IMG/VR virus record: IMGVR_UViG_3300045988_100686
Span: 83,680 to 147,679 of that record
From: a virus
Length of the DNA: 64,000 bases
Reading direction: 5' to 3' (one strand)
Shown: positions 1,099 to 57,230 of the stretch, piece by piece
Layout: each line of letters begins with the position of its first letter
Position numbering within the stretch: position 1 is the stretch's first letter
Translations under genes and position numbers: made by a program
The notes under the pieces: generated by a model
Seen by the model: the letters and a program-made list of their open reading frames with translations, nothing else
What the model was told of the DNA's origin: nothing
Database searches by the model: none

Positions 1099-1611
1099 TC
1101 ATCCTTTTGGCATCTGTTTTACTGCGTCAGCAATTGTTTTATATAGAAGAGCTCCAGTTGCTACATTACCTGCAGTAGCTAGCGCTCCAGCGGCACGGGT
1201 CTCATTCTTTGTAATCCCAAGATCCCTAAAGTTTAATGTACCAGACCCATTCTGGATTCTTTGCTTGATTGTCTTGTAAGTGATTAAGAATGATGGTGCT
1301 GAAGCAATAAGTGATGCTACTTGTAGTAAATGTGGTTTTTGACGTGCACTAATAAGTTGTCCAATGTCAATCGTTGTTCTAATTGCACCTTTGATAGCCA
1401 AAGCAGCGACAAGAACAAAGATTTTACGAATAACAAGCTCTTTTTTGCTCAGCTGAAATCCATCTGTTATCTCTTCTTTTGACATTACTGTATGATCTGG
1501 GATTAAGTAAATAGCTGCTACACAGACTACTAGGGGAATACCCTTGCTTATTAAAAACCGTTTTACTTGTTCTCCAATTATATTTGCGAGCATTTGTTCG
1601 TCTCTGCCCAT
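1099..1611 (-). CDS. hypothetical membrane protein (170 aa)
   Basis: ORF track. The start ATG overlaps the TAA of the upstream RNAP gene (TAATG). Hydrophobic segments are present. Confidence 0.5.
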   Translation of the reverse strand: MGRDEQMLANIIGEQVKRFLISKGIPLVVCVAAIYLIPDHTVMSKEEITDGFQLSKKELVIRKIFVLVAALAIKGAIRTTIDIGQLISARQKPHLLQVASLIASAPSFLITYKTIKQRIQNGSGTLNFRDLGITKNETRAAGALATAGNVATGALLYKTIADAVKQMPKG

Positions 1612-4313
1612 TAGTACCTCCCGTCTTTACCTTTTCCGAATCCTGTTCCGCGTGCGTAGGAAGGAATAGGATTATAAGAGTGTAATGGACTACGTGATTG
1701 TGTAGCAGCGTTATCAATAAGCTTCTCTTTTAAGTATTTAAATCCAAAGTTAGCCATCCAATCATGTTTGTAGGTTGGGGCTTTATTGGTACCCTTCTGG
1801 AAGGGAACAAACTTTGGTGGACGCTTGCTAGGATTCTTGCGAATATCTGCTGCTAGCTGGTTATAGTCTACTACGTCTCCTTCAATGAGATCATCAAAAT
1901 CTCCCGGATCAATAATCTGTACGTAGTTTATTAATCCACGAGCGATTACCTCAAAGTTTTTCTTTACACTATCGAGTCCTGCACCATGGTACAGAGTATC
2001 AAGACTCTGAATAAACTGCTTGCGACCAGTATCTATGCCTTTGTAAGGTACAACCTTGCTAATGTTTAGAATACCGTCTGTTAATGGGTCGCCAGCTTCT
2101 ACTCTATCCCCAACCTTTACTTTCAGTGTTCTTGTTGGCGGTATGTAGTACTTCTTACGGCCTATGTATACGTTCTGTCCGCCTGCAGGTGCTGCCTGTA
2201 TGTTTGTGATTGTTCCAGATACTTCAGTAATAACTGCTGCACCACTAAACTTAGTGGACATATTAAAGAACGCCTTTACCGTGTTAAAACCAATTGCCTC
2301 ACCTGCTGCAGTACCTGCTGTATGTTTAGATGACAGGCCTAACTGTGTAAAAGGTTCTGAAATAGCGTGAGCAGATACTACACCTACATTTTCACCGATA
2401 TCAGGGAATTTCAATTTCTCGTTGTACCCGTAGCAATATTGGCATACACCATCATGTGCTTCACATGTAGCTGGGCTACGTACCTCAACCTGAGGAACTC
2501 CACGACGTTTTAATTGTTCATAATAGTTGGCATCGATAAACTTGTTTGTCTTCGCCTCAACACGGTTAATGATATTCTTAGTATCGTTAATGTCACGTAC
2601 TAAACCACGTTTACATCCGCAATCCTTTTTGGTAACTACGATATCAAGTACGTTGCCAATAAGTTCTTTTGCTAATGCGCCTGCAGGAGCTACGGATAGC
2701 TTTGCACCAACAGTACCTTTACGGGTGCCATAGGATGATACAAAGTAATCGGCAGGACTTAGACCCTCGTTGTATGATGTGTGAATCAAGGAAGGAATAA
2801 GTTTATCTTTAGGATCTGCTACTACTGTAGGACTAGTTATGATCTGCATTACTTGTCCTTTTGACCCCTTGGAGCCTGTATATGCCCACTGCTGGAATGT
2901 GTTGTCAGTTGCCTCATCTGTGAGTTTCTGTGCAAATGCCTGAGCTTTACGTAATATCTTGCCTTTTTCTGCATCGACTTGTTTGGGTGTAAGATCTTTG
3001 CGTTTGTCAATATCTGCCAGCTCTTGGTCAATCTTATTGAAGTATATGTTACGCTTTTTCTTCAACTCATCCATATCGAAGTCAGTTGCTTTGTAAGATA
3101 CACCTAATCTATAGGCAAATAATGCTCCCAACTCTTTTAGACCATCAGCAATCCTGGTATATTCTTTTGGCCATCTCTGTCCTACCTGGGTAAGAAGGCC
3201 GCTCATTACGGATTTATTCCACACTTTGTCATAATTACGCAATGGCATTGGGAATAGCTCATTGATAAGTACTGCACCTGCAGTTGTCTTAAACTGTCTG
3301 TATTGAACAGGGGCGTCTGGCTTAATCATTCCCATGCGGATATTTTCGTGAAGCTGTTTAACGTTTTGTACAGGAGTGAATCGTGTACTTTTATCAAACG
3401 TTGGGAGAGTCTTTGTTGCTGCAAATAATCCAAACACTGATTCCTGCTGTGGTAACATCATAGGTCCCATGTTGCGGGGTGAGAATAAGTTGTGACTTGG
3501 AGTCATTTTCTCCAGTGCTTCTAACCTTGCTTCTTCCGTTGCAGGTACATGAAGCTGCATGGTATCATAAACTAGAATACCGTTGGCTATGAAAAGTGGA
3601 AACTCCGGGACCGTGAAGTCGTAAGTTATTTCTTCTCGGTCAACTTCTTCTACAGAAGTCACCTCATCCCATACATATGGCAGGTTTAAATATGGATTTG
3701 CTGGGTTTACCTTAGCTACATCACTGATCTGTACTAGTGCGCCATTCTCTGGTATTCTTACTGCGTTGTAGTCCAAGTATAAACGTGTGTTTACTATTTT
3801 GCAAAAGATACCCTGACGTGCTAGTATTACTTTAGCTAATTCTAGCTCTTGCTTATCCTTTACCTTCCAGTACATACTAGGATTTTCTGTGTTATCTGTG
3901 GTATCAAAGTGGACCATTGCTAACAATGCCGTGCCAAGATCATCTGTTGATAAATTTAGCATATAATATGAAAACTTGTTTGGTTTAAAGTTATCCATTG
4001 CAAACTTACGCATAGCTTTTGCTTGTGCAGTTTTCTTTGGAATATATGATATCATACGCATTATAGGCACGAATTTACCAAGTGCATCCTGGGGAGGTAA
4101 TGGAGCAAAAAATGTTTCACTTCCGTTTGTTGCCAATGAGTGGTCATCGGTTACTGTGATCTCGTAGCCACAAGAGGTGCAGATTCTGTACATCTTCCCA
4201 TGCTCTGTGTGTACACTTCGCTCAGTGTAATCCATGAATTCATTGGTGTTTGTAGCAGGGCAATAGGTTAATACTTTTCCCTTAACTACAGTTGAGTTAC
4301 TTTGGGTACTCAT
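1611..4313 (-). CDS. RNA polymerase beta-prime C-terminal portion, preceded by a 250-aa split-intein C-fragment
   Basis: After residue 250 the protein reads TMQLHVPATEEARLEALEKM, which matches beta-prime QMAVHVPLSxEAQxEA directly after NADFDGD. The N-terminal 250 aa carry intein block B (ITVTDDHSLAT) and blocks F/G (ITYDFTVPEFPLFIANGILVYD). GGAGG lies 12 nt upstream of the ATG. Confidence 0.8.
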   Translation of the reverse strand: MSTQSNSTVVKGKVLTYCPATNTNEFMDYTERSVHTEHGKMYRICTSCGYEITVTDDHSLATNGSETFFAPLPPQDALGKFVPIMRMISYIPKKTAQAKAMRKFAMDNFKPNKFSYYMLNLSTDDLGTALLAMVHFDTTDNTENPSMYWKVKDKQELELAKVILARQGIFCKIVNTRLYLDYNAVRIPENGALVQISDVAKVNPANPYLNLPYVWDEVTSVEEVDREEITYDFTVPEFPLFIANGILVYDTMQLHVPATEEARLEALEKMTPSHNLFSPRNMGPMMLPQQESVFGLFAATKTLPTFDKSTRFTPVQNVKQLHENIRMGMIKPDAPVQYRQFKTTAGAVLINELFPMPLRNYDKVWNKSVMSGLLTQVGQRWPKEYTRIADGLKELGALFAYRLGVSYKATDFDMDELKKKRNIYFNKIDQELADIDKRKDLTPKQVDAEKGKILRKAQAFAQKLTDEATDNTFQQWAYTGSKGSKGQVMQIITSPTVVADPKDKLIPSLIHTSYNEGLSPADYFVSSYGTRKGTVGAKLSVAPAGALAKELIGNVLDIVVTKKDCGCKRGLVRDINDTKNIINRVEAKTNKFIDANYYEQLKRRGVPQVEVRSPATCEAHDGVCQYCYGYNEKLKFPDIGENVGVVSAHAISEPFTQLGLSSKHTAGTAAGEAIGFNTVKAFFNMSTKFSGAAVITEVSGTITNIQAAPAGGQNVYIGRKKYYIPPTRTLKVKVGDRVEAGDPLTDGILNISKVVPYKGIDTGRKQFIQSLDTLYHGAGLDSVKKNFEVIARGLINYVQIIDPGDFDDLIEGDVVDYNQLAADIRKNPSKRPPKFVPFQKGTNKAPTYKHDWMANFGFKYLKEKLIDNAATQSRSPLHSYNPIPSYARGTGFGKGKDGRY
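3564..4313 (-). other. split intein C-fragment (blocks B, F, G; about 250 aa)
   Basis: TxxH block B motif at aa 55-58. The C-terminal NGILVYD is followed by a +1 Thr. The extein resumes with exact beta-prime spacing. Confidence 0.65.
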
Positions 4314-4470: not shown

Positions 4471-4830
4471 ATGATTCCTTTAAGTCAAATTTATAAGAGG
4501 GAGAAGATTATTCTTACAATAAAGAATAGTAAAGATCTTATTAAGGAAGTATCCATTAATGGAGTAAACTTACTTAGTAAGACTTTATCACTTATTGTTA
4601 ATCCTGATTTAAACTGTGACCTCTTCCTGTTGAGAACCACAAAGTCAGGAGGAATAGTCTTCGAGCAATCAACAAAAGGGAATATTAGAATTACGATCTC
4701 CTCTAATATTTCCCTTGAATCAACCACAGATAGACCTACAACAAATTTCATAAGGGTATCTCAACGAGAGAAAAAGAATAGGCAGTGGACAATCTGTGAG
4801 CGATTCTATACCTTGGAGATCAATAGTTAA
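4471..4830 (+). CDS. hypothetical protein (119 aa)
   Basis: ORF track. GGGGGGAG lies 9 nt upstream of the ATG. Confidence 0.4.
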   Translation: MIPLSQIYKREKIILTIKNSKDLIKEVSINGVNLLSKTLSLIVNPDLNCDLFLLRTTKSGGIVFEQSTKGNIRITISSNISLESTTDRPTTNFIRVSQREKKNRQWTICERFYTLEINS

Positions 4831-4849
4831 ACGAAAGAAGGATTTTATT

Positions 4850-5080
4850 ATGAACACTAATCTGACCCGCATTGTATTTATCTCTGGCCAAACTCAACCG
4901 TACGTATTCAGCCCGGACGACGGCGCAAATGATCTTACTGACGCTCAGATCTTGGAATGCATCGCTGCAACTGATCCGTCTGTTAACACTTCTGCTCGCC
5001 TGGCTTGGCAGCAAACCCAATACAATGGTGAGCAAGTTCTCTCCGCAACCTATGTGCCGCAAGCACAAACCAAAGGTTAA
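4850..5080 (+). CDS. small hypothetical protein (76 aa), high GC, ends in Gly; possible beta-grasp/ubiquitin-like
   Basis: GAAGGA lies 8 nt upstream of ATG 4850. Local GC is about 50% with ctg/ccg/cgc codons, unlike its neighbours. The C-terminus reads ...QAQTKG. Confidence 0.4.
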   Translation: MNTNLTRIVFISGQTQPYVFSPDDGANDLTDAQILECIAATDPSVNTSARLAWQQTQYNGEQVLSATYVPQAQTKG

Positions 5081-5280
5081 TCTGCTGGGTTTCTCTAATT
5101 AATTGATCTAGCCTTGTTAGGCTACGATTACTGTGTAGCATTTTCTGGTAAAAATTTAATATTGAATTAGAATATTATGATGGCATAATCGTTCTAAAGA
5201 CAATTGCATATTGAAAGACCTAGATAGTCGGTAATAGGTGAACAGAAAGACTTAATCTTCTACAAGTTATACGCAAGGGG

Positions 5281-5326
5281 TCTATGTAGTCTTCGGACTG
5301 CATAGATTCCCTAAAATTTTTTTTTA
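5281..5326 (+). terminator. possible intrinsic terminator (UUCG-loop hairpin with distal T9)
   Basis: The arms tctatgtagtc and gactgcataga flank a ttcg loop; a T-run follows 9 nt later. Confidence 0.3.
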
Positions 5327-5348
5327 GTACTTTGAAAGGAGGATAATA

Positions 5349-5633
5349 ATGGGTGTTCAGTCTGAAATAGATAAAGTTATAGGAGAACTTCCTGAGATTA
5401 AACCTCTCAGCTTTTATATTGAAGAGTTACGGAAGTATTTAGACACAACGACTCCTCTTGAGGAAATGTTTAAAAAGCCTTTCCCAGAAGAACTGATACG
5501 TAAATTTCTAGCTGCAAAACAAGATAATTCACAGAGAAGAAATGAGCTGCTCGTAAAGCAGGTCTGGGAGATTGTAGTTGATCTTCCTGTTGCACCTGTA
5601 CCAGAATCTAGTAAAAGGAGGAGAGTAATGTGA
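5349..5633 (+). CDS. hypothetical protein (94 aa), first gene of the plus-strand operon
   Basis: AAAGGAGG lies upstream. The stop overlaps the next start (ATGTGA). Confidence 0.5.
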   Translation: MGVQSEIDKVIGELPEIKPLSFYIEELRKYLDTTTPLEEMFKKPFPEELIRKFLAAKQDNSQRRNELLVKQVWEIVVDLPVAPVPESSKRRRVM

Positions 5634-7114
5634 GTAATGAAAATATGGCTTCAGGCTATATAAATTATATTGCTGATGCTAGTACCTCAGTAATTGGACG
5701 TAATAGAGGGAAGTGGGAATTGTCACAAAAGTATGTTCAGTATTTAGATGATACTACTGAATATGCACTTGGACTAATATTTGGACCTTATCAGCTTAAT
5801 CATTTTGGTTGCTACGTAGCAACTAGAATATTTTCTTCTATTCTTACTCCTGGTAAGAAAAACGGGTTAATGACACCCAATGAAGCTCGTGGAGCTATTG
5901 AAGATAATCTTTACTGTGATGTGAATTTGCCGACATTGTTTTTCAATGCCTTGGTGCTCTTAAAATTCATGCAGTTCGGAGACGATACTTTTGCTTCCCC
6001 TACAGCTTTCAAGTATATAAAACGAGTCCAGACAAGTGGATCCCGAGGAACTATTGTTAACATGAAAATTATTCCATTTGTATCTGGGCTTGTTACTCCA
6101 GAGACAATGCTTAAGGGAGTAAAGATCCTGTGTGCAATAGCTGCATTAAAACCAGAGGTATATGAAGCAGTTCAAGAAATATACAATGATATTAATAAAG
6201 AATTACTCAGAAATATAATGGTAAATGCATCTGAATTGCTTGACCTTAGGATAGAGAGTGGCAAAATTGCAATACCTATGTTTAAACTTGGTGCTCCTGG
6301 TATCCCGCTCGAACTTGTACTCGATGATTATAAGGAGTTTTCACTTAAGCTCGAAGAACTTGCCTCTAGAATTTTAGAGGCGTGCAATGGTAGCTTAGAA
6401 GATTTCCTTCAAGCTATATTTGCTCTTGACATTGATAATATAACTACCTATAAGGAGGAAAACACAATGATGGTTGTAACTGAAATACTGAGGAATCTGA
6501 TTAATAAAGGTATACTGATTACTCGTGATGGCAGACTGCTGTCCATCAACATTACTGATGAAGATACTGTTCAGGTTAATCCTTTCAATAATAATGATGC
6601 GGAACGCCCGACTATTGCAAATTTGACCATTGAACGTAACGGTACTACAGAGGAAATCATTACTCTGAAGGATGATAGATTAGAACATATTATTGATACC
6701 GCTCAAAACGTTCTGAATTCTAGTGTAAACAATGCTATCAACAATGACAGAAATGTCAGAGTACAGCGTGCTTCTATGGCATCTGCTACACCTGCTACAC
6801 CGGAAATGCGTAGAAATGCTGACGGGTCTATTTCTGTGCATAGAACAGTTGGCTCTTTCCGTATGTGGGCCCCAGCTACTCCTGCAGAGGCAGCTCAATT
6901 TGAGCGTACACAGCAACAACAAGCTCAACAAGATCAGCTTGCAGCTGGTGAGGATACAGAACGGGATGCCATTGTTGAAACCGTAGAAGATAGTCCTGAA
7001 GATATTGTCATGGTTTCTGTTGTGGAAAACAATAGTGTGCGTGTAAGACGTATGACTCGTGAAGAAGCTGAAGATCAAGAACTTGCTATCGTAAGTGTTA
7101 TTGAAAGACGGTGA
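5630..7114 (+). CDS. hypothetical protein (494 aa) with a Q-rich acidic C-terminus
   Basis: ORF track. It overlaps both neighbours, which suggests translational coupling. Confidence 0.6.
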   Translation: MSNENMASGYINYIADASTSVIGRNRGKWELSQKYVQYLDDTTEYALGLIFGPYQLNHFGCYVATRIFSSILTPGKKNGLMTPNEARGAIEDNLYCDVNLPTLFFNALVLLKFMQFGDDTFASPTAFKYIKRVQTSGSRGTIVNMKIIPFVSGLVTPETMLKGVKILCAIAALKPEVYEAVQEIYNDINKELLRNIMVNASELLDLRIESGKIAIPMFKLGAPGIPLELVLDDYKEFSLKLEELASRILEACNGSLEDFLQAIFALDIDNITTYKEENTMMVVTEILRNLINKGILITRDGRLLSINITDEDTVQVNPFNNNDAERPTIANLTIERNGTTEEIITLKDDRLEHIIDTAQNVLNSSVNNAINNDRNVRVQRASMASATPATPEMRRNADGSISVHRTVGSFRMWAPATPAEAAQFERTQQQQAQQDQLAAGEDTERDAIVETVEDSPEDIVMVSVVENNSVRVRRMTREEAEDQELAIVSVIERR

Positions 7115-7928
7115 TTATACAATGGCTATGAATATTAAAAAGATAGAATTTGAAGACAATTCTGCTGTAGTAACCATGAGGGATCCTGACGAACTTATTG
7201 GTCTTGTACGTAAAAGAGTGTCGATTGATGCTCTAATTCAAGCCCTTGGAAAGATTAGTACATCCCAATCTATGCTTATTCCTCCTAACTGCAGGGGCAT
7301 TTGGGAGACTAAAAACAATAAGTATTTCCTGTTTATCATCCCGGCACACATGGGCAAGACTGCCGTAGTGTGGTATAAAACTGACACTGATAACTATGGA
7401 GCTCCGGGTAGTAGTACTAAGTTGGAGAACCAGCCTGAACATATTCAGTCAATGTATGAAGACTCAGAAGACAGTGACTACATTAGAGTGTTCAACACTC
7501 CATTCCCAGATGCGTGTGTGTTGATTAAAATGACAAAGGCTGGTAGCAATAAACTTATGTTTAATGATATCAGAGCATGGTCTATTAAGAGTACTATGCT
7601 TCCTCTAGATAAAACAGCAGTATACCGCTGGCCGTTCTTTAATATGTATGGTGATGCAAGAGTATGCATTGGTGATATCCCCAGAGAGTATCCTAATGTA
7701 GAATCTGTTGCTAGTATTATTAATTACCTATATATTGGCGTAGGTAACCATGATCTTGATCATACTCCATATGTAATTCCTGATAATAAGTTTGGAATCA
7801 AAAATTCTTTTCAGTTGGTCAAATACCTTGATGAAAACAAGTTGACTGTATTTCCAAGGGAGTTACTGTGTAGTTTTGGTACATCGATCATTGAAACAGT
7901 AGAAAATATTGTTGCTAATGGAAATTAA
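7095..7928 (+). CDS. putative E2-like (UBC-fold) ubiquitin-conjugating-like protein
   Basis: FFNMYGDARVCIGDI resembles the UBC active site HPNIxxxGxICLDIL (Asn, Gly, Cys flanked by aliphatics, Asp). It directly precedes the JAB and E1 genes. Confidence 0.45.
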   Translation: MLLKDGDYTMAMNIKKIEFEDNSAVVTMRDPDELIGLVRKRVSIDALIQALGKISTSQSMLIPPNCRGIWETKNNKYFLFIIPAHMGKTAVVWYKTDTDNYGAPGSSTKLENQPEHIQSMYEDSEDSDYIRVFNTPFPDACVLIKMTKAGSNKLMFNDIRAWSIKSTMLPLDKTAVYRWPFFNMYGDARVCIGDIPREYPNVESVASIINYLYIGVGNHDLDHTPYVIPDNKFGIKNSFQLVKYLDENKLTVFPRELLCSFGTSIIETVENIVANGN

Positions 7929-9793
7929 TGGAGGTAAAAATAATGGCAGTTCCAAACCAATATAATAAATATGCTTCTTTATATACTGTGCCCAAAAAGC
8001 CAGAACTCACAGACGTCCAAAAACGTCTTATTGAACGTATGCAACGTAGTCGCTGCAAAATCTGGGAGTCCTATGCTGCGTATACTGCAGCTGATGAATC
8101 TGATAAGAAACCAGACAATTACTTCCCAACTAAAACTGGTTGGGGTATTGCGCGCAAGCGTGTTCTCAATGGTAATAGTGTGGAGTTCGTTACAACTGTT
8201 CCAGAATGTCCGCTGGTTGATGAAATCCAACCCAAAGTTGTTCTTGATATTCATAATAAAATCCCTGGATCTCTGCTCCAGGAGATTCTTGCAAACTTTA
8301 ACAAAGTATGCGAGGACTCTAATAATGAGTGTGCTGCTCAGATTTACCGTGAGCGAGATGGTGAAAGAAAGTATTTCATTTATTACCCTGAACAAAAGGT
8401 GTCTACTGCTCAAGTAACCTATACTCATGATCCACAGCTCATGGAACTCGCAAAGGCATATGACCTCATCATGGAGCTGCATTCCCATGATTCTATGGGT
8501 GCATTCTGGTCTGGCACAGATGACAGTAATGAGAACACTTGTGGATTCTACATGGTAATTGGCAGATTTAACTCTTCTGTAGTTGAGTACAAATGCCGTG
8601 CAAAACTTGATAAACTGTATGCTGATTTTAATTGCTCTGAAATCTTTGATTTCGGTGACACACCTGAAGAACAAATCCTTACTCGTGAAAACTTTATTGC
8701 TCCGAATGATGAACTGGATAAGAAGATCACAAAAGAAAGCCTTACTTATTATAATGGTGCGTATCAAGCTTGTTATGACATGTGGAACTATGGTGGTTAT
8801 TCTTATCAAGGATACAATGACTATAATTATGGTAAATCAACTAAGAAATCTCAGAGATACCTTGCTAAAACAGAACTGGCTGCACGTAAACGCTTGATGG
8901 CTAAATTGAAGAATGCTCCGGAATCCATCTTCCCGGAAGACGCTCTTTATAATGAGCTCTGGGATCATGCAGACTATATCAAAGCCAGAAAACGTTGGGA
9001 ATGCTGTGGGTACTATGATAACCAGGAGGCCATGAAGGAATGCTGGAAACGAATCCCAAAAAACCAGGCAGGCGCGGAAGAGGAGGTGAGTCAAGACGCC
9101 GTCGTTGCCTCTGATTATGTAACTCGTATGAGCAAGTGCTACTCTGCAGATGGGTTCCAAAATACCCATACAGCTGGTGGAGTTGCCACTGGCATTGAAA
9201 CTGCGGAATATCTTGCTGGTAATGGAGATGAGGCAGCTGCACGTTATGGCACGCTTCCGGGCAAGATTCAACAATACAGTAATTTTGATTTAGATCTTGG
9301 CACTGCTGATGTGAATGACCAAGACTACAATGATAATCTTAATATGGCTGTGGCTAGCAGAACTGAGTCCCAGTCTAACATTGAGACATTCTTGCAGGAA
9401 GGAATGGGCGGGGTCCGTGAAGAGACTGAAAACAAATTTATTGCTAATGTAATGAATATTGCGTTTCTTCACACCCCGTCAGCCAGTATCAACGTCGGAG
9501 TGTTCTGGGAGTTGCTTACACCGGTTGAGAAAACTAGACTGGCAAAAGCATTCCACTGCTCTGTTATGGATCTTGCTACTCTGCTTATTGGCAGCAGCGC
9601 TGTTGTTGCATCTCCTGATGTAGCAGAGTTCCTGTATAAGTGCATCCTTGGTGATGCTAAGTATGTAGAATGTAAGCTTGGTCTTATTACCAGTAAGGTC
9701 ATGGCTGAAAAGCCGTCTACTGCTGCTCAATTTGTAGCACTCATCCATGAGATGCTTGAGGTTGAAAGAGATGTTAAGGAGGCAAAGGAATGA
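7928..9793 (+). CDS. JAB/MPN (JAMM) metalloisopeptidase domain protein (621 aa)
   Basis: A complete JAMM motif is present: E...HSH-DSMGAFW-S-GT-D (HxHx7Sx2D). A large Cys/Trp-rich C-terminal extension follows. The start overlaps the E2-like stop (TAATG). Confidence 0.7.
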   Translation: MEVKIMAVPNQYNKYASLYTVPKKPELTDVQKRLIERMQRSRCKIWESYAAYTAADESDKKPDNYFPTKTGWGIARKRVLNGNSVEFVTTVPECPLVDEIQPKVVLDIHNKIPGSLLQEILANFNKVCEDSNNECAAQIYRERDGERKYFIYYPEQKVSTAQVTYTHDPQLMELAKAYDLIMELHSHDSMGAFWSGTDDSNENTCGFYMVIGRFNSSVVEYKCRAKLDKLYADFNCSEIFDFGDTPEEQILTRENFIAPNDELDKKITKESLTYYNGAYQACYDMWNYGGYSYQGYNDYNYGKSTKKSQRYLAKTELAARKRLMAKLKNAPESIFPEDALYNELWDHADYIKARKRWECCGYYDNQEAMKECWKRIPKNQAGAEEEVSQDAVVASDYVTRMSKCYSADGFQNTHTAGGVATGIETAEYLAGNGDEAAARYGTLPGKIQQYSNFDLDLGTADVNDQDYNDNLNMAVASRTESQSNIETFLQEGMGGVREETENKFIANVMNIAFLHTPSASINVGVFWELLTPVEKTRLAKAFHCSVMDLATLLIGSSAVVASPDVAEFLYKCILGDAKYVECKLGLITSKVMAEKPSTAAQFVALIHEMLEVERDVKEAKE

Positions 9794-11295
9794 AGAAAAC
9801 TGTGTTAGCTATCGGGCCTGCTAGTCCGTATGTGAATCTCTTGGCAACTGTTCAAGAGCATTTAAATGACTTAAGTGTCATTAAACCTAATTTTAATAAC
9901 CTTCATATCATTCAGCTCGGTGCTGGTGGTACTGGCGGTTATGTAGCGTATGAAATACTTCGTATGCTTGGTAATATTCCAGAGGTGTTAAAACCGTATA
10001 TCCATTATACACTGATAGATGGTGATACGTATGAGCCAAAGAATATTGGCAGACAACTTTGCTGTGAAGATGATATCGGTAAGTATAAAGCTCAGGTCCT
10101 CGTTGAAGAGTATGGAGAACTCTTTGGTGTTACTCCAGACCAAGCGTCTCATATCGATGAGTATTTTACTGCTATCAGCCAGCTGGCTGTTCTTCCAAAA
10201 TTCCCTCTGCCAATCTGGTCTGTATTTGTAGACGATGAAGTAGAAAAGTTCTTCAAAGACTCTGAAGCTGCAGTTGCACTTAATTCTAAACAGCCACATA
10301 TCAATGCAACAGCTACGTCATTTATCATTATTGACTGTGTTGACAAAAATGCTCCGCGTAAACTATTACATGATTACTTTACAGATATCTCCAGTTTGCC
10401 CAGTACTTTGGCGCGTCTGAACTATTGTTGCAATGCTGTTCCTGACTGTGATAAGATCACTGCTACTGGGCAGCAAATCATTGCACATAACAACGGTGGT
10501 AACAGCCTGCTTGGAAGTATGTACGGTGTCACCCCGATTCGTGATATCTACATCATCTCATCCGGCAATGGCAAGTATACTGGCCAAGTATCCTGGGGAA
10601 GAAAAAGCTTCCTTGGTAACTCCAGTGGTTCTATGCACTACAAGGATATCTTTGGTGACAAGGATGTATCTTCTATTATTGGACCTAAGATTAATACGAA
10701 TGATGAAGTAGAGGCTGTCGATATTACTCCGGGTATGACAGACGCTGATGTAAACCAGTTGCGGCTTAAAGCATTGGCTGAGGAGTATTTTACACCGTCT
10801 AATGTAAAGAGATTCCAGGATAATGTATTCCAAGAAATTGTGGATCCTGCTACTGGCAGATTGTCAAATGGTTACATTAAGTCTATCCCGATTCCAATTA
10901 CTAACCCAGAGGAACCTGAGCTTGAAACTGGACACCCGATGCTCAAAAACATGAATATGTTCATGTCTGCTTTTATGTCTACACCTACTCCGTATGACAG
11001 GTTCCCGGAGCTTACAGACCTTGAGATTGATGCAAGAGAAGAGGCGATGAGCTGCGCGGAGCGTGCAGAACATAATGTACAGTCTATCAATGCTAATAAA
11101 ACTGCTGCAGCTCTTGTAGTAAATTACTTCACATCTATCTTTAATGGTATGTATATGTTTGAAAAGGAAGTACCCGTTCTTACTACTGAGACTACACGTT
11201 TCAACATATTAACGGGCGAGTACTCTTCTGACCCGATTACTACGGATTCTCTGCGTATCCCTGTGGAAACACGCAAAAGAGTTCGCGCATTTTAA
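9790..11295 (+). CDS. E1-like ThiF/MoeB-family adenylyltransferase (501 aa)
   Basis: Motifs IIQLGAGGTGGYVAYEI (Rossmann GxGxxG), LIDGDTYEPKNIGRQL and EDDIGKYKAQVLVEEY match ThiF/MoeB/E1 signature blocks. ATGA overlap with the JAB gene. Confidence 0.7.
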   Translation: MKKTVLAIGPASPYVNLLATVQEHLNDLSVIKPNFNNLHIIQLGAGGTGGYVAYEILRMLGNIPEVLKPYIHYTLIDGDTYEPKNIGRQLCCEDDIGKYKAQVLVEEYGELFGVTPDQASHIDEYFTAISQLAVLPKFPLPIWSVFVDDEVEKFFKDSEAAVALNSKQPHINATATSFIIIDCVDKNAPRKLLHDYFTDISSLPSTLARLNYCCNAVPDCDKITATGQQIIAHNNGGNSLLGSMYGVTPIRDIYIISSGNGKYTGQVSWGRKSFLGNSSGSMHYKDIFGDKDVSSIIGPKINTNDEVEAVDITPGMTDADVNQLRLKALAEEYFTPSNVKRFQDNVFQEIVDPATGRLSNGYIKSIPIPITNPEEPELETGHPMLKNMNMFMSAFMSTPTPYDRFPELTDLEIDAREEAMSCAERAEHNVQSINANKTAAALVVNYFTSIFNGMYMFEKEVPVLTTETTRFNILTGEYSSDPITTDSLRIPVETRKRVRAF

Positions 11296-11335
11296 GCTAA
11301 CGGTGGGCTCTTTGTGAGTCCACCTTTTATTTTTT

Positions 11336-12325
11336 ATGGAGGTATGCTATATGCAAATCCCAAGTTGGTTTATGGATAAGTATTTTCCAGAAGGTAGCGC
11401 ACGCTCTGCTATAGTCTGTGATGACGGAGAATTAAAATCATTCTTACGAATGGAAGCAGATGATAAGAATGCTGGGTGCGAAATCTTTGGTGATTATAGC
11501 TACGTGGAAGATATCATGGCAGTAATGTGTGAACCTGTTGTGGCCCATGAATTATCACTGCCAGCGCTTGAAGACTTAGTTCCTGATAAATATCATATAT
11601 ATAGGGTTATTCCACCATATTATCTGCAGTTGTGGTACAAATATCAGCTGTCAAATAGGGGCATGACAAGTAGCTATACAGAAGATAAATTTAAGGTTGA
11701 TTTTATTACTGCGTATATCATTGAGTTCCCATGGGAACAGATGTCAAGTTGTAGCAGAAGAAAAACGAGATCAAAAAATGATGTAGACCACTGTATGTAT
11801 GACAAAAATTTATTTAATGCTTGGTGTTATCAAAAAGATACTATTGAGGCTGTAGCACAGTTTCTTAATATCTGTAGAATCCCTGCATCTGAGGAAGAGA
11901 TTGCGAAACTATTTATATCTAGGTTTATCTGGTATAGCTTTGTGACTCAATTGGATCTGCTGGATAGCATAGAAATAGGGGAATGGCTTGATTTTTATAA
12001 TGGAGCACCGTATAGATCAAGATGCGTTGATAGAAACTATGAGTTGAATTCTAGAAAAAGTTGTGGCCACTGGGGTGGTCTCATGGCTGCAGGGATTAAG
12101 ATAAGCCGTATCCTGGAATATCCTAGAAATGCTGATTCAGTAAAATCTAGAGTCTTGCAAAGGGCTAGGCTCTTAGTTGTAATGTTTTGTATGTCCCAGT
12201 CACCCAGAACGGTGAAGCTGATCATTGAAGGTCTTATGACGTTTTCTGCGTCAATATCAGGTACATGGATGTTAAGCATCATTGAACCACTGGTAAGGGA
12301 GGTGGAGCCTTCATGGCTAAAATAA
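11336..12325 (+). CDS. hypothetical Cys-rich protein (329 aa)
   Basis: ORF track, same operon. Confidence 0.55.
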   Translation: MEVCYMQIPSWFMDKYFPEGSARSAIVCDDGELKSFLRMEADDKNAGCEIFGDYSYVEDIMAVMCEPVVAHELSLPALEDLVPDKYHIYRVIPPYYLQLWYKYQLSNRGMTSSYTEDKFKVDFITAYIIEFPWEQMSSCSRRKTRSKNDVDHCMYDKNLFNAWCYQKDTIEAVAQFLNICRIPASEEEIAKLFISRFIWYSFVTQLDLLDSIEIGEWLDFYNGAPYRSRCVDRNYELNSRKSCGHWGGLMAAGIKISRILEYPRNADSVKSRVLQRARLLVVMFCMSQSPRTVKLIIEGLMTFSASISGTWMLSIIEPLVREVEPSWLK

Positions 12326-14145
12326 ATGAGTTTACTATAGTGAGTGAGCTGAATGATGAGTTTAGTCTACGGGTATTTATGGAGTCGGGACAAAAGGTTG
12401 CTCAAGTTAATAATGTCTCTCATGATTTCTTAAGAGAGGCAATGCCTACTAGCAGGCTTGGAATAAGAACTCCAGGACTTGCTCCCTGGCCATCTAAATT
12501 TAAGGAAAATCCAGTTCCTGATGGATACTCTATTGCACTAAGTCATAAGTATACATTTGGGTCGATGTGTCTTAAGATGCTCTTGAACAAGCAAGCCAGA
12601 CACAGATATTTTGCGTTATTACTCGCGTTGTTTGGTAATAATGAAAATACCAGGGAACTTCTCACTGTAATGTTGTTAAGAACGAAGTTTACTGATGAAT
12701 TACGATATTTATGTGAGCAGCTTGACATTTCTCGTATGTCTGTTAGAACCTGGGATAGTGTGGCTATAGACAACAAGCCTGGCAGTGTAAAGTTTAATGA
12801 TGTTAGAAATTCTCCATGTAGTTGGTCGAGTGCACTTAGAAATGGATGTCTTGCTGACGGATATGTACCTCATCCGAACATATGGTTCAGAGATGTGAAA
12901 AATAAAAGTTTGTTTACTAAGATATCCGCTTGTGAGATGTTCCCTAATCTTGCTCCAAAGATCCTGGCAAGCATCCCTAAGTACCCTAAAGGAGGCAAGG
13001 TAGATAGAATTGTAGATATAAGGACTCAGATTCTGTTCAATATGCTGAGAAATGCATATGGACTCAAGTATGAGGATATCATTGTTGATAAGCAGCTAGA
13101 TCTTAATACATATGAAGTTCTATCTTCTCTCTGTGCTATTCTTACTGCTGCTGCAGGATTAGGCGGCAGGGTTTCTATTACTGATATCAGAGGAGTTGAT
13201 CCAGACTTAGATGTAAAATTAAGGTTTAGTCTCTGGTATCGTAATGTAAGATCAAGGATACTGACACTTCAAGGGAATTATGGTGTGGCAGGTGATGCCT
13301 GGCTTATGGACAAACTGCTTACTTCATTAGCTGTTGTAATGAATGCGGGGGATAAACAGGAAAGTGAATTGCTAACGTCGTGTGTACGAGCTGCAGTTGA
13401 TGAAAATGATCTCCAGGAAACCCTTGAGGGATGGGTGTCTAAGAGGAATATCAATATGTATCTTGGTGATACGAATACTTTAAACGCGGTGAATGTTCCC
13501 GCATCTACCTTGAGGAGCATTGAAGATGGGATAGATGACATTGTACAATCACTGTCTGACAAGGATAACATTGTTAAATGCCTAAAAGAACTGGTGCAGC
13601 TTCAGGAGTCTTCTATTAGTGGGAAGGCATTTGATCCTGTCACTACTACTAACTATACAAATATACAGTATAACAACAATGGACTTGTAACTGCGAGCCT
13701 GATTCCAATGATTACAAACAGATTCCAACTACTGGACTACATTTATAGAATGAGTACGTATAGAGAAAACGAGTTTATCTATGATACTATGGGAATCGTA
13801 AACAGATGCTCTAGGACTATAAGTTCCCATGTAAGTTCTTATGAATATAGTATAGGTATTTTGAAGAAATGGGAAGAGTTGCGGGATATTGCACTTGATC
13901 AGGTCTCACACAACGGTTCCGGGTATTTTTCAACTGAAATGTTGTATTGGAGTGCACTGGCTAGAGTTCTGGTAACCGACTGGCAACACTTCTGCAGAAT
14001 CAATGCAGGGAAATCCAGAGATGAGCTGTTTGAGATGTCAGTACTTACGGATAATCCATTCGCTGATATTGAGAACAGTGTCTGCCAAGAAATTGATGAG
14101 TATAAATCTGGATATGCAAGATGGCGTGAAAACAGGTTTAAATGA
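12313..14145 (+). CDS. hypothetical protein (610 aa), last gene of the operon
   Basis: ORF track. The ATGGCTAAAATAAATG overlap suggests coupling. A terminator follows. Confidence 0.6.
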   Translation: MAKINEFTIVSELNDEFSLRVFMESGQKVAQVNNVSHDFLREAMPTSRLGIRTPGLAPWPSKFKENPVPDGYSIALSHKYTFGSMCLKMLLNKQARHRYFALLLALFGNNENTRELLTVMLLRTKFTDELRYLCEQLDISRMSVRTWDSVAIDNKPGSVKFNDVRNSPCSWSSALRNGCLADGYVPHPNIWFRDVKNKSLFTKISACEMFPNLAPKILASIPKYPKGGKVDRIVDIRTQILFNMLRNAYGLKYEDIIVDKQLDLNTYEVLSSLCAILTAAAGLGGRVSITDIRGVDPDLDVKLRFSLWYRNVRSRILTLQGNYGVAGDAWLMDKLLTSLAVVMNAGDKQESELLTSCVRAAVDENDLQETLEGWVSKRNINMYLGDTNTLNAVNVPASTLRSIEDGIDDIVQSLSDKDNIVKCLKELVQLQESSISGKAFDPVTTTNYTNIQYNNNGLVTASLIPMITNRFQLLDYIYRMSTYRENEFIYDTMGIVNRCSRTISSHVSSYEYSIGILKKWEELRDIALDQVSHNGSGYFSTEMLYWSALARVLVTDWQHFCRINAGKSRDELFEMSVLTDNPFADIENSVCQEIDEYKSGYARWRENRFK

Positions 14146-14155
14146 TTTGTACTTA

Positions 14156-14188
14156 GACGAGAGTGAAATACCTCTCGTCGTTTTTTTT
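14156..14188 (+). terminator. rho-independent terminator
   Basis: The arms gacgagag and ctctcgtc flank a 9-nt loop, followed by T8. It lies 11 nt after the stop at 14145. Confidence 0.75.
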
Positions 14189-14189
14189 A

Positions 14190-15335
14190 GTTATCTAGAA
14201 TTTAAAGGTTGGACAATGTTGAACATGCTTCTCTCAGAGCCTACAGTGTACCTAGATTTGATTTTTATGTAGGGGTGTATGTAGTTATATACCCTGTTGT
14301 AAAAAGTCTCTCAAAGTTAATCCTAGGAGCTCTGAGATATATGTGTGCATTTTAAGCAGAATATGGAGGCTGTTTGAGCACTGGATAACAAGGTCATAAA
14401 GTACCTAAAAACCAGTGTAACCTCTGCAGCCCTTACATAGCAAGGGTTTCAAGCTCTGGTTACACTTGTCTACTTATCAGACAATTTAAAGTGTAACCAC
14501 AAAAATCTCGATAGACTGGGGCCTCAGATACCTCAAAATATACTGGTTACACTTTCTACACTAAAAAATATATATATATTATATACGATATACGATACGC
14601 GCACCCGCGCCTTAGGGGATTATTTATATAATAAATATATAAAGATACACACATAATTATATATATATTATATGTCTATCCAAAAAGGTGTAGAAAGTGT
14701 AACCAGGGCCTTTTTGTAGTCATACGCCCCCAGTTCATCGAGGTTCACGCGGTTACACCTTTTCAAAAAATAGGTGTAGAAAGGTGTAGATAAGTGTAGA
14801 GAGTTGTCAGACAATTTTAAAAGGCACCATAAATCCAGGTAAACGTCGTTAGTCCCAGTACTGTCCTTGTAAAACTATGATTTTCGTAGTACTCAACATA
14901 CGAGTGTCCATTAGTTCAAACTTTTGACACACTCTGATTTTTCTGAAAATTATTACCTATCTTGCTACTATGTTTATAAAATATAAAATAGTATGCAACA
15001 TATAAATTAACTTTTAACTTTAATAAACACATCCAAGCAGACTACGTTACACAAAGTTGTGACACTTAAGTGACATTGTAATATATCTTTCAATTCTAAC
15101 AAATCAGATAATTAAGATTTTTCATAGTTTATAATAAAATTCAGACAGCTATCCATGTCAGTCTTTGTCTTTCATAGCTAAACATAACTAACCATAGCTA
15201 ACAAGCATACATAGCTCTCAGAGCATATAGAGTACCTACATTCATTTTTTTAAATCATCTCCTATACAATATACTAATAGCAAACAAAGTCTTCTCAAAA
15301 CTAATTCTAGAGCCTCTCAGACATATATGAACATA
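14190..15335. other. 1.1-kb non-coding AT-rich region with iteron-like repeats; candidate replication origin or regulatory hub
   Basis: No ORF of 60 aa or more. It is flanked by convergent terminators. Repeated GGTTACAC/GTGTAACC (6 copies), GTGTAGA(A/T)A (5 or more copies), CAGACAATTT (2 copies) and (TA)n tracts are present. Confidence 0.45.
14543..14706. repeat. 19-bp perfect inverted repeat (CTGGTTACACTTTCTACAC ... GTGTAGAAAGTGTAACCAG) flanking a 126-bp (TA)n-rich core
   Basis: Arm 14543-14561 is the exact reverse complement of arm 14688-14706. The core contains tatacgatatacgatacg and a short GC hairpin cgcgcacccgcgc. Confidence 0.7.
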
Positions 15336-15370
15336 AAAGAGCACCAGACGGCCACAGTCGTCCAGTGCTC
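15331..15370 (-). terminator. rho-independent terminator ending the long minus-strand operon
   Basis: Two 6-bp stems are separated by a 2-nt bulge (gagcac..gtgctc). On the minus strand a UUUUA run follows. It lies 8 nt after the stop of 15378..16043. Confidence 0.55.
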
Positions 15371-15377
15371 TCATTGT

Positions 15378-19959: not shown

Positions 19960-21540
19960 TTAACATCCTGTAATATAATAAGTTATCGTATCTGTACTAA
20001 GATGATCACCGAGATTAACAACGATAGACTCCAGAGTAAACGACTTAATTGTTGGCTGATCGCTGTCTGGATTAGTATTCCGCAGTTTAACATTGAGTAT
20101 CTTTGTTTTCATCGCTCTAGGTAACACGATTGTTTCAGAAACACCCTGGCTTCCCCATACACTAAGCGTACCATCAGAGTTCTCTACCCAGTTATCACCT
20201 ATAGAATCAGGATCCGATGATATCGTAGCAGCTGCTTTGGTAGTCATTGCAGAAAGTGCAATAACTGTGTTTTCAGCTTCAGCATCAATTGTCACATATT
20301 CTGGGTGATATGCACGAATAGCGAATGTGAGGTTATTCGTATCACATACTTTCCCATTACCAGGATTTCCAATATCTATATTTTCCGATGTAATACACTG
20401 CCCCACCGTTGGCGGGTCTCCAGAACCCGGGCCATAATTATTTCCGCTACCATTCCACCCAATCCCAGTACTACCTGTAGGATATGTTGCATTAGAGTAA
20501 TCGAACCAGCCCCAAGTACCATTGTTGTTTGACCAGCTTCCAATTGCATGATAATGTTTAGAAACTTTCTGCTCAGTAGTACTTAGTTCACCATAGATCT
20601 CATTCACCGCCATACAGCTATTCTGTATAACAGGTAATCGTATCATTCCAGCAGTAGATGATTCTCCAAAGTACGGTACACTGCCATACTTGTTTTTATA
20701 CGAAGTCCATGCAGACTCAGATATTACGAGGTTTGTATTCATTGCATACTGATACAGGCCTCTGTATAACTTTTTTGATACAAGTGACCCATTAAGCTCC
20801 AATAGTCCTTCAGGGGTATTCTTAGACAATACAATGTGTATAGTGCCAACACCATCAGTAACTTCAGGTGCAATCTGTGATGTTTTCTTTATAACTGCAA
20901 GTGACTTATACGGTGGCACAATGTCTACAGATTTTTGACCTCCATTAACATAAGGTATTACAGTCGTCACCGTAGAATCATAATACGCTGACGGCCATAC
21001 TGGAGTTGACCTATCTGAATCAGTTCCAAGTCTATTGCCATAGTATTTTAGTTGCACACCTGTATAACCTGAAATTTCTTTCCAACTTTCTGAGAAAACA
21101 TAGTTATTAAAAGAATGTGTATGTCTTGGGACAGGGAATTCTGTAATATCAACAGAATCCCTGCCAGATACCTCAGTGTACTCACTGTCAGACTTTGCTT
21201 CCATGACGAATTTCCCACGCATATCCAGGGTATCATTACTGCCGTTACAAAGCACAAACCCCTCTGGAATTTCAGTCTCACTTTTTGACCAGTACAACAT
21301 AGAACCTTCTGGTAGCACAGCCTCTTCAGTTCGTTTACGCAGGTCTGCTATTTGCAGCTTGAATCCTAGCAGCTTGTTATACAAGTCTTTATCCATGAAT
21401 CCTGGGTGCTCCGTAGTTCCTACCACATGAGCATCACCCCCGGAACCAATGTGGTCACGTATCTTTTGTGCGATGCCTTCAAGGCTGTTTCGTAGTTCAG
21501 GTATTTTCTCCTTGATAACTACCTTGTCTTTCACTGTCAT
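19960..21540 (-). CDS. tail fiber protein with tail-collar domain (526 aa)
   Basis: The sequence FVLCNGSNDTLDMRGKFV is present. It shares a 60-aa near-identical block with 45483..46445. Confidence 0.6.
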   Translation of the reverse strand: MTVKDKVVIKEKIPELRNSLEGIAQKIRDHIGSGGDAHVVGTTEHPGFMDKDLYNKLLGFKLQIADLRKRTEEAVLPEGSMLYWSKSETEIPEGFVLCNGSNDTLDMRGKFVMEAKSDSEYTEVSGRDSVDITEFPVPRHTHSFNNYVFSESWKEISGYTGVQLKYYGNRLGTDSDRSTPVWPSAYYDSTVTTVIPYVNGGQKSVDIVPPYKSLAVIKKTSQIAPEVTDGVGTIHIVLSKNTPEGLLELNGSLVSKKLYRGLYQYAMNTNLVISESAWTSYKNKYGSVPYFGESSTAGMIRLPVIQNSCMAVNEIYGELSTTEQKVSKHYHAIGSWSNNNGTWGWFDYSNATYPTGSTGIGWNGSGNNYGPGSGDPPTVGQCITSENIDIGNPGNGKVCDTNNLTFAIRAYHPEYVTIDAEAENTVIALSAMTTKAAATISSDPDSIGDNWVENSDGTLSVWGSQGVSETIVLPRAMKTKILNVKLRNTNPDSDQPTIKSFTLESIVVNLGDHLSTDTITYYITGC

Positions 21541-24586: not shown

Positions 24587-24862
24587 CTATAGATTTGACA
24601 TACATAGCAGCTTTTGCGCAAATTTGTCAATCCGCTTTAACAATGATTTGACATGCCTGTCAAGTGTCGAGGGCGACATTCCCAGTTCTTCTGCTACAAA
24701 TTCTCTCGTAGGCTTGAAATCACGTTGACGGTAGCGTAGCTCTAGAATCTTACGCTCCTCTGGTACCATACCCAGAAAGTTGCATAGACTTTCATAGTCT
24801 AGCTGTGGGATTTCCCTGAGCATCTGCTCAATTGCCTTACGATTTTGTTTTGTTAAGGCCAT
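24587..24862 (-). CDS. small sigma-70 region-4-like HTH protein (putative late transcription regulator, ArpU/RinA-like)
   Basis: ELRYRQRDFKPTREFVAEELGMSPSTLDRHVKSLLKRI resembles sigma-70 region 4 / ECF HTH. Confidence 0.5.
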   Translation of the reverse strand: MALTKQNRKAIEQMLREIPQLDYESLCNFLGMVPEERKILELRYRQRDFKPTREFVAEELGMSPSTLDRHVKSLLKRIDKFAQKLLCMSNL

Positions 24863-52266: not shown

Positions 52267-52442
52267 GTAACTGGATAATCAAAGAACTAGAGAAAAAGGC
52301 TTGGGCTGAAGCTGTCTTTCCAGAGATTGACAAATTTTATGCCAAAATGCTAGAGCGTGGCACAAGAAGATTTGTCATGACGGGAGTGCAAGAAGGCGCA
52401 ACTTACGCAAGCAAACAAAACAAGAGAAAGGATGGTAAATAA
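52263..52442 (+). CDS. small basic protein (59 aa) translationally coupled between the 545-aa gene and the RNAP gene
   Basis: ATGA overlaps the upstream stop and TAATG overlaps the RNAP start. MSNWIIKELEKKAWAEAVF... It falls below the 60-aa track cutoff. Confidence 0.4.
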   Translation: MSNWIIKELEKKAWAEAVFPEIDKFYAKMLERGTRRFVMTGVQEGATYASKQNKRKDGK

Positions 52443-56916: not shown

Positions 56917-57017
56917 AAAGTTGTGGGATAAGTATGGTGTAGAAAAGATTTAGTCCATTTCTACAAAAATTTAATTGTCTATCACACGACGTAAAACTGT
57001 GAGAAAGAGGTTTTATC
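56917..57017 (+). repeat. about 100-nt intergenic repeat, copy 1 (GTGGGATAAGTATGGTGTAGAA-hairpin-AATTGTCTATCACACGACGTAAAACTGTGAGAAAGAGG)
   Basis: About 90% identical to 58446..58546. Each copy ends at the RBS/ATG of a small membrane-protein gene. Confidence 0.7.
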
Positions 57018-57230
57018 ATGGAAATGAACGAAATGAACAATGTAGTGGGTTCTGTAGAGATGAGCACTCCTGTTGTAGCACAAGATACCTCTGTGTCTAA
57101 TACTGGCATCAATCTGAAAACTGTAGGCCTGGCGGGTCTGGCAGCTGTAGTCGCTGGTGCAGCTTTGTACTACGGTTACAAAAAGTACAAAGATCATAAA
57201 GCTACAGCAACAGCAGAAGAATCCAAATAA
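57018..57230 (+). CDS. small single-pass membrane protein (70 aa), Met/acidic N-terminus, TM, YGYKKYK tail
   Basis: Paralog of 58928..59137 (GLAGLAAVVAGAALYYGYKKYKDHK vs LIGFIVGAAAAYGYHKYKQRK). Confidence 0.5.
   Translation: MEMNEMNNVVGSVEMSTPVVAQDTSVSNTGINLKTVGLAGLAAVVAGAALYYGYKKYKDHKATATAEESK

Follow-up and report, generated by a model that had tools for sequence, protein, structure and literature searches.

What is the role of a gene-free, AT-rich island of 1.1 kb that lies between two converging operons in the genome of an uncultured large phage? The island (positions 14190 to 15335) belongs to a stretch of 64,000 nucleotides of the IMG/VR virus record IMGVR_UViG_3300045988_100686 (positions 83,680 to 147,679 of that record), which we call the window and to which coordinates refer unless a relative is named. 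The window encodes split homologues of the multisubunit RNA polymerase (RNAP) subunits beta and beta' at 1611-4313 (-) and 52442-56557 (+). Replication origins remain practically unmapped in jumbo-type phages that carry multisubunit RNAPs of their own, and the terms "origin of replication" and "replication origin" are absent from the text of a 2026 review of jumbo-phage biology. An initial annotation, made from the letters of the window, had noted inverted repeats and iteron-like words around an AT-rich center and had proposed an origin or a packaging or partition site. Our analyses of repeats, helix stability, and conservation indicate that the island is a genuine DNA element that acts in cis, is under strong constraint, and has an origin-like architecture. 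The function we consider most plausible is that of a bidirectional replication origin, in which mirrored initiator sites would surround an unwinding element, although we hold this reading with slightly less than even confidence.

A repeat search bore out the perfect 19-bp inverted repeat that had been described at 14543-14561 and 14688-14706, around a 126-bp spacer. No other perfect spaced inverted repeat in the window is as long, the runner-up measuring 14 nt, and no Markov-1 randomization of the island (n=1000) reached 19 bp, the maximum being 16. This repeat (I3; 19 nt, 100%) has a common center with a second inverted repeat (I1; 34 nt, 76%), and the resulting large imperfect palindrome (14488-14761; arms 14488-14561 and 14688-14761) would be capable of forming a cruciform or hairpin. 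Nearby inverted iterons include a perfect 12-bp pair at 14488-14499 and 14544-14555, and as single-stranded DNA the segment from 14400 to 14830 is predicted to fold with a dG of -64.5 kcal/mol (z=-8.3).

Between the arms lies an AT-rich, asymmetric core (14562-14687) that is a candidate DNA-unwinding element (DUE). The (TA)n runs, tatacgatatacgatacg, and a GC mini-hairpin, GCGC-ACCC-GCGC (14599-14610), all previously reported, are present on direct reading; the hairpin lies on one side of the center only, and the conserved 18-mer GATTATTTATATAATAAA (14618-14635) lies 3-10 bp from the dyad axis. When duplex stability was calculated from nearest-neighbor energies over the 64 kb, the minimum for 60-bp segments fell at 14619-14678 (-54.9 kcal/mol versus a mean of -76.9, sd 4.6) and that for 130-bp segments at 14556-14685, which coincides exactly with the core between the repeats. 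All four of the 60-bp windows with the lowest stability lie inside the island, and the repeat-bracketed core is also the least stable duplex in the loci of three relatives (L004, L007, and L013). The proposed anatomy of iterons plus an unwinding element was borne out, and the comparative data given below strengthen it considerably.

A perfect 19-bp inverted repeat around a 126-bp segment beside tail-fiber genes might instead mark a DNA segment that inverts as a switch (inverton) or a site where hairpin telomeres are resolved, and the central ACGCGC and (TA)n recall protelomerase targets. We find this explanation scarcely credible. All 11 assemblies compared, from two clades (the 10 genomes of the window's clade and L013), carry the asymmetric core in one and the same orientation, the center of this core is not dyad-symmetric as a protelomerase target would be, and no recombinase, invertase, or protelomerase is detectable nearby, the protein of 610 amino acids (aa) encoded next to the island having no family match.

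The repeat arms are built from shorter words. Six of the eight copies of GGTTACAC/GTGTAACC in the window fall in one ~340-bp part of the island (14415-14758; Poisson P ~3e-11), in line with the count first given. Together with GTGTAGA, GTGTAACC forms one iteron family, A(A/G)GTGTA(A/G)(C/A)(C/A), and not two motifs, because in a three-way alignment GTGTAGAAA / TTTCTACAC aligns with a second GTGTAACC copy in L013. Within a 431-bp core there are 12 GTGTA-family sites, compared to 1.1 expected (P=3e-9). The iteron-field core (14408-14830) holds iterons starting at 14415(+), 14458(-), 14491(+), 14545(-), 14554(-), 14688(+), 14697(+), 14751(-), 14774(+), 14784(+), and 14794(+), with a weaker site at 14646(-). 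The left arm of the 19-bp repeat is an iteron doublet, GGTTACAC + TTTCTACAC, that aligns to the doublet GGTTACACTAGTTACAC of L013, and the right arm is the doublet GTGTAGAAA + GTGTAACC, whose surrounding block (14669-14704) is 100% invariant among the close relatives. These doublets, 14545/14554 (-) and 14688/14697 (+), mirror each other across the 126-bp AT core.

Spacing within the array follows the helix. The tandem words GGTGTAGAAA / GGTGTAGATA / AGTGTAGAGA are indeed present, at 14773-14803 with a spacing of 10 bp, one helical turn, in a block (14745-14822) that is 91% invariant. Tandem spacings across the array are 9, 9, 10, and 10 bp, and where iteron starts lie farther apart (43, 33, and 54 bp) the distance is close to an integral number of turns. 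Another word, TCAGACAATTT, had been placed at 14466 and 14806; it does occur twice, but the positions are 14477 and 14807. The longer 14-mer has no exact repeat, since an extra T is present in its second copy (TCAGACAATTTTAAA). The first copy belongs to a small palindrome, TTGTCT-N7-AGACAA (14465-14487), the second copy is TTGTCAGACAATTT (14804-14817), and both lie in invariant blocks.

How strongly is this arrangement constrained? Megablast and blastn searches with the island found no DNA match among phages and plasmids, and scans of IMG/VR and GTDB genomes by flanking proteins, profile, and repeat pattern gave no relatives; the relatives described here were obtained from Logan, ENA, and JGI metagenome assemblies only. 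Samples SRR6714125, SRR25448437, SRR31227267, SRR24884072, and ERZ1026868 contain the phage. Through the flanking 610-aa protein we reached nine more genomes (70-99% protein identity), each with a gene-free gap of ~1.23 kb. Invariance was counted over nine of these ten genomes (the window plus eight), L012 being outside the alignment. Fourfold degenerate codon sites are 39% invariant overall and 25-29% invariant in the two genes touching the island. By comparison, 71% of columns are invariant in the island as a whole, 84% in the core at 14408-14830, 86.5% in the AT-rich core, and 97-100% in the blocks of repeated words. Patches at 14345-14407 and 15031-15046 look neutral because only 19-25% of their columns are invariant; the first, a spacer without constraint (19%), serves as a neutral yardstick within the island. 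The 19-bp inverted repeat is reduced to 18/19 in five of nine close relatives, and the conserved arm is the 17-mer GGTTACACTTTCTACAC.

Length is conserved more strictly than spacer sequence. The 423-bp core shows zero indels in ten genomes even though the spacers between words vary freely, whereas the rest of the island has indels. Such a pattern, invariant words separated by drifting spacers of fixed length, is characteristic of protein-binding sites phased along duplex DNA, and the substitutions indicate strong purifying selection on both the repeated words and the AT core. Since the island is more conserved than the proteins flanking it, it would mark some essential DNA-protein machine. Even if it were not an origin, it would still be among the most strongly constrained sequences of this phage group.

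The same plan recurs in more distant phages. Homologues of an adjacent 221-aa gene product (51-57% identity) led to L013 (JGI 3300076244), whose neighboring proteins share 52% and, for the 610-aa protein, 27-29% identity with those of the window; synteny is kept and the gene-free gap measures 1,517 bp. L013 carries the identical octamer, and 11 of the 12 GTGTAACC copies of its locus are in the island, many as 9-bp tandem doublets such as GGTTACACTGGTTACAC. Its island is a nested palindrome of ~600 bp with arms of 44, 51, and 55 nt at 98, 96, and 80% complementarity, and these arms share one center, a 90-bp AT-rich asymmetric core that keeps ACGCGC and GATTATTTATATAATAAA oriented as in the window. 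A 24-29-nt piece of the AT core (TAA(A/T)TAGTGTATGCTTTATTATATAAATA) also occurs three times in the L013 island (9019-9047, 9545-9573, and 9862-9885), its copies lying in the center, right flank, and left flank, with weaker echoes in the window at 14340-14353 and 14642-14655. A further assembly, L014, ends at L013 position 9359, within the 44-nt repeat arm at 9327-9370. The assembler k-mer is presumed to have been ~31, and the break is explicable because a 44-nt arm of 98% complementarity exceeds that length in a de Bruijn assembly. In a third clade (L015-L018) the contigs end in the island before the palindrome, so that the arms lie outside what was seen.

Constraint of this kind could reflect a gene rather than a DNA site. 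The island proved gene-free, as first described: it contains no tRNA (ARAGORN), no Rfam 15 match at the gathering score, and no conserved open reading frame (ORF). Rfam searches at E-value thresholds returned sub-threshold matches that amount to noise, the best scoring 31 bits against a cutoff of 211 and reflecting the long hairpin. No ORF of at least 20 aa was intact across the relatives with a coding-like substitution pattern. The sole ORF intact in 9/9 genomes, 14556-14654 (-), was rejected as a candidate gene; its codon position 1 is the most variable, and it has no ribosome-binding site.

One or more structured noncoding RNAs, with hairpins closed by GUGUAACC/GGUUACAC stems, would explain the strongly negative consensus folding energies (z down to -7.8) and a few one-sided, G-U-compatible changes in a repeated module at the left edge of the island. 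In a sliding RNAalifold scan with column-shuffle controls, however, the core was strongly negative in z on both strands alike, as expected of DNA inverted repeats, and the scan found no compensatory pair in the core. A separate RNAalifold run on the left edge module gave no supported fold, no structure common to the edge modules emerged, and the stems are invariant while the enclosed "loops" drift, yet the large AT "loop" is itself conserved. A noncoding RNA is therefore highly unlikely in our judgment. Because folding is equal on both strands, the core lacks compensatory pairs, and the edge modules share no fold, the island acts as DNA; to judge from these comparisons, it is a cis-acting DNA element and not a gene.

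We ranked a bidirectional origin first because the anatomy of the island matches the general design of replication origins. We only infer protein binding, unwinding, and replication initiation at the island, and the following steps are offered as a model. An initiator, encoded by the phage outside the window, would bind the 10-11-bp iterons, A(A/G)GTGTAACC and their GTGTAGA variants; the candidate binding sites of the phage protein would be the AAGTGTAACC sites. These iterons, as doublets and triplets spaced by 9-10 bp, would form mirror-image arrays flanking the 126-bp AT-rich core, and cooperative binding or wrapping, together with negative supercoiling, would melt this least stable duplex of the region. 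The inverted iterons could then fold into hairpins or a cruciform and keep the region open, and the mirror symmetry would allow two helicases or replisomes to be loaded head to head. The GC mini-hairpin and the invariant GATTATTTATATAATAAA in the core may position melting or priming, and two ~115-nt edge modules beside the terminators that bound the island might be auxiliary protein sites.

Well-studied origins provide points of comparison. In OriS of herpes simplex virus (HSV), inverse initiator boxes flank an AT-rich spacer of critical length, and a third inverted box leads to a hairpin after unwinding (PMC12543377). The island resembles the UL9-bound OriS and OriL in its mirrored iteron doublets across a 126-bp AT core with zero indels, and it likewise has inversely oriented boxes flanking an AT-rich spacer within a palindrome. 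Unlike them, it comes from a bacterial virus and is unrelated in sequence. Its AT core, at 126-142 bp, far exceeds theirs in length, lacks symmetry, and is conserved at the sequence level; its boxes are many more (11-12) and include tandem 9-10-bp arrays; and it lies between convergent, not divergent, transcription units, with no UL9-like candidate in the window.

Iteron origins carry short, replicon-specific, helically phased repeats beside an A+T-rich region that opens on initiator binding; in ori-lambda the iterons are followed by a 40-bp A+T-rich region (PMC5043065). The island is like such origins (ori-lambda; P1, F, RK2, R6K, and pSC101) in its phased cluster of short repeats beside A+T-rich DNA: the repeat cluster, the helical phasing or fixed spacing, and the adjacent A+T-rich unwinding element are all present. 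A cognate initiator gene at or next to it is not found among the ~50 ORFs of the window, whereas known iteron-type origins are mostly found within or beside the gene for their initiator. Their repeats, moreover, are mostly one-sided direct repeats of 17-22 bp, while the unit here is 8-11 bp long and dyad-symmetric within a 274-600-bp palindrome. In the ori of phage P4, an octamer, TGTTCACC, is repeated in both orientations. The T4 origins oriF and oriG show that origins of a large lytic phage can lie away from replication genes, oriG being in a tail-fiber gene. They consist of a promoter and a downstream unwinding element primed through an R-loop, and in the island promoter-like hexamers similarly face the AT core; T4 lacks the iteron arrays and the palindrome, however, and the putative promoter-like sites of the island are incompletely conserved.

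Several observations weigh against a replication origin. No replication, initiator, helicase, or primase gene was found near the island or within the 64-kb window. Two transcription units converge at the island, where forks leaving it would meet both operons head-on, and viral origins usually lie between divergent promoters. The AT core is conserved in sequence, beyond composition, which a pure unwinding element would not need. Finally, the GC-skew analysis that had been suggested as a check placed a local maximum of cumulative skew at the island, which by bacterial convention marks a terminus; within 64 kb this test is confounded because gene orientation flips at the island.

That skew maximum and the position between convergent operons are what one would expect of a replication terminus or fork trap, or of a concatemer or dimer resolution site, where oppositely oriented sites would arrest or resolve forks. 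Inverted Ter sites are known from B. subtilis and R6K, and the binding-site-like repeats of the island do form inverted arrays. The switch of coding strand already explains the skew maximum, however, and a terminus has no need of a dozen phased iterons or of the region's least stable duplex. Termini are usually dispensable and poorly conserved, unlike the island, and no recombinase lies nearby. We consider a terminus or resolution site distinctly improbable.

Packaging and partition sites must be weighed against the same anatomy. P1 pac, SPP1 pac, and P1 parS have short boxes on both sides of an AT-rich or bendable center, and the island could be a packaging-initiation (pac) site bound by a small terminase, or a centromere-like partition site, whose boxes would bend or loop the AT-rich center. 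Clustered inverted and tandem repeats around such a center, fixed spacing, and strong conservation fit this reading equally, and the short assemblies L001, L002, L005, and L014-L018 end inside the island. The known sites, however, lie in or beside terminase or partition genes, pac sites specifically in or beside the small-terminase gene, whereas the large terminase gene here (59906-61522) is 45 kb away and no ParA-, ParB-, or TubZ-like gene is adjacent to the island or in the window. Nine long contigs run straight through it, and the end of L014, the one contig end mapped to a repeat arm, falls in the 44-nt arm, where the k-mer explanation would apply. On balance we regard a packaging or partition site as unlikely. 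Of the functions named in the initial annotation, packaging loses weight through the 45-kb distance to the terminase gene, and origin, packaging, and partition are inseparable by sequence alone.

A further alternative concerns transcription, and it involves repeats elsewhere in the window. Words of the island had been reported to recur in early-gene intergenic repeats at 56.9 and 58.5 kb, which suggested binding sites for one phage protein. The words do recur there, GTGTAGAA at 56937 and 58465 and AGACAATT at 56973 and 58502 (opposite strand), and GTGTAGAA and AATTGTCT sit in a repeated promoter-plus-leader unit. In that unit GTGTAGAA forms the start-site portion of a motif of early-promoter type, TGG(T/G)ATAAGTAnnnTGTAGA, which is present in five copies (+ strand, starts at 4401, 56611, 56928, 58456, and 61527), lies upstream of genes, and is directly followed by a hairpin beginning at GTAGA. 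This motif probably serves as the early promoter of the phage, as an extended -10 promoter or one for a virion RNAP, and would give its transcript a stem-loop at the 5' end. Early promoters of RNAP-encoding jumbo phages are phage-specific, AT-rich, and centered near -10 (PMC7598289), a description that the five-copy motif fits. No full copy of TGG(T/G)ATAAGTAnnnTGTAGA is present in the island, and the two words are oriented differently relative to each other in the island and at 56.9/58.5 kb. Because the words at 56.9/58.5 kb belong to the five-copy motif, whereas those in the island are an iteron variant, the proposed link through one DNA-binding protein is weak; a binding protein common to both places is possible but not supported.

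The shared word leaves room for the island to be a transcriptional control region, an enhancer-, operator-, or insulator-like array for a phage regulator, possibly the early-promoter factor, that might drive short transcripts. GTGTAGA is found also at the start-site end of the early-promoter motif, and sigma-70-like pairs in both arms face the core (TCTACA-16-TATTAT on the + strand and TCTACA-16-TATAAT on the - strand); the early promoters of jumbo phages are AT-rich, phage-specific, and centered near -10 (PMC7598289). The island, however, lacks the full promoter motif, its GTGTAGA is a diverged GTGTAACC iteron with GTGTAACC in its place in L013, and both flanking operons terminate, rather than begin, at the island. 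DNA rich in (TA)n always yields -10-like hexamers, and the one on the - strand is lost in L007-L009. A control region seems to us rather improbable.

Two further repeats were noted near the early promoters. A 65-nt leader (..TCTATCACACGACGTAAAACTGTGAGAAAGAGG..ATG) occurs three times (56960-57024, 57256-57320, and 58489-58553) upstream of small, apparently membrane-protein genes, and a second repeat, GTCCTGAGCATGACGTTAAAAGGCTCAA, occurs at 57228 and 57527; both may be shared regulatory elements of 5' untranslated regions.

Outside the palindrome, the island is framed by two copies of a ~115-nt module (CTCTCAGAGC ... GTACCTAGATT ... AATCCTAGGAGCTCTGAGA). The left edge module (14231-14345; repeat families D1/I2) has its direct repeat at the right edge (15215-15330), and each adjoins the inner side of a terminator. 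Edge modules are present in all three sampled clades, at both island ends in L013 (109 nt, 79%) and, in L015-L018, as the right-hand module, the only one visible. RNAalifold gave no supported common fold for 14 such sequences from the three clades. As general promoters the modules were rejected, their motifs being found nowhere else in the window. Likeness between modules is 0.79-0.84 within a genome versus 0.69-0.80 between clades, and because the bounding modules are slightly more alike within a genome than between clades, the whole island may be viewed as a self-contained "replicator cassette."

With that cassette included, we tentatively extend the origin reading to a broader proposal, in which we have appreciably less than even confidence: the island would be the first identifiable origin of large multisubunit-RNAP phages and would follow a plan like that of eukaryotic viruses, with a nested palindrome of 274-600 bp, mirrored 8-11-bp words, and a melting core conserved in sequence. 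The sharply bounded element of ~420 bp, with its defined 10-11-bp word, melting core, and natural variants, is a directly testable target. Should it prove to be an origin, the initiator could be isolated with it as bait, and a herpesvirus-like design of mirrored palindromes would have been shown in bacterial viruses.

To the right of the palindrome, an AT-rich flank (14872-15125) is also conserved, with 81-86% of columns invariant, and contains the second and third least stable 60-bp windows. It holds an isolated iteron, GTTACAC (15046-15052), and a 10-bp palindrome, CACTTAAGTG (15063-15072); no consensus fold and no conserved ORF were found in it.

The boundaries of the island are set by two intrinsic terminators. 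On the left, a + strand terminator (14156-14190; stem 14156-14179 and a T run), invariant in nine genomes, closes an early operon (4471-14145, +) that has the early-promoter-type motif at its start and encodes proteins with Prok-E2, JAB, and ThiF/E1 domains. On the right, where the tail-fiber (late) operon ends, an invariant - strand terminator (15337-15372) has a 14-bp stem and a T-rich tail. The adjacent 610-aa protein had no match in Pfam, PHROG(s), NCBIfam, PADLOC, or PDB (phmmer); a HMMER search of 1.84 billion representatives found it in this phage group only, including two more deep clades (proteins P0032 and P0033), and its AF2 model (pLDDT 33) was unusable. It was considered as an initiator, recombinase, or protelomerase, and all family searches for these were negative. 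The sole DNA-binding candidate seen in the window was a 91-aa protein at 24587-24862 (-) with sub-threshold matches to helix-turn-helix and sigma-70 region-4 families.

The window also encodes a portal-like protein and a long series of - strand tail-fiber genes, and the best GenBank phage match of its terminase has only 27.6% identity. The phage genome is probably ~150 kb long because the longest contigs of independent assemblies reach 146-152 kb; jumbo-phage-type multisubunit RNAP genes are carried here in a genome well below 200 kb. Three independent assemblies (L003, L006, and L010; 114, 48, and 36.5 kb) seem, from contig coordinates, to stop at one position, window ~25,030, which is ~10.9 kb past the 610-aa gene and where the window sequence shows nothing special. 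This shared end could be a strain-variable junction or a physical end.

Directly after the large terminase gene and an early promoter lies a retron-type reverse transcriptase gene (62238-63857, +), with scores of 5e-16 for Pfam RVT_1, 6e-40 for PADLOC RT_III-A, and 124 bits for the NCBIfam retron St85 family, below the cutoff of 235. No msr/msd-like RNA and no template/variable repeat pair accompany it within the window. Two tail-fiber genes share a 168-nt repeat of 85% identity (20389-20556 and 45957-46124), near which contigs L008 and L009 stop. A diversity-generating retroelement was considered for the reverse transcriptase gene and this repeat and was rejected, because the mismatch spectrum is mixed and not that of adenine-directed mutagenesis.

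The operon to the left of the island deserves mention for its content. Besides the Prok-E2, JAB, and ThiF/E1 proteins, it encodes three to four proteins of unknown family (window 5349-14145, +; L013 10118-16600, -). Sets of E1, E2, and JAB proteins are known as bacterial anti-phage systems, and a phage copy is unusual; PADLOC gave weak matches for E1 alone. The operon abuts the tail-fiber module, and it is kept even in the clade at 27-29% identity.

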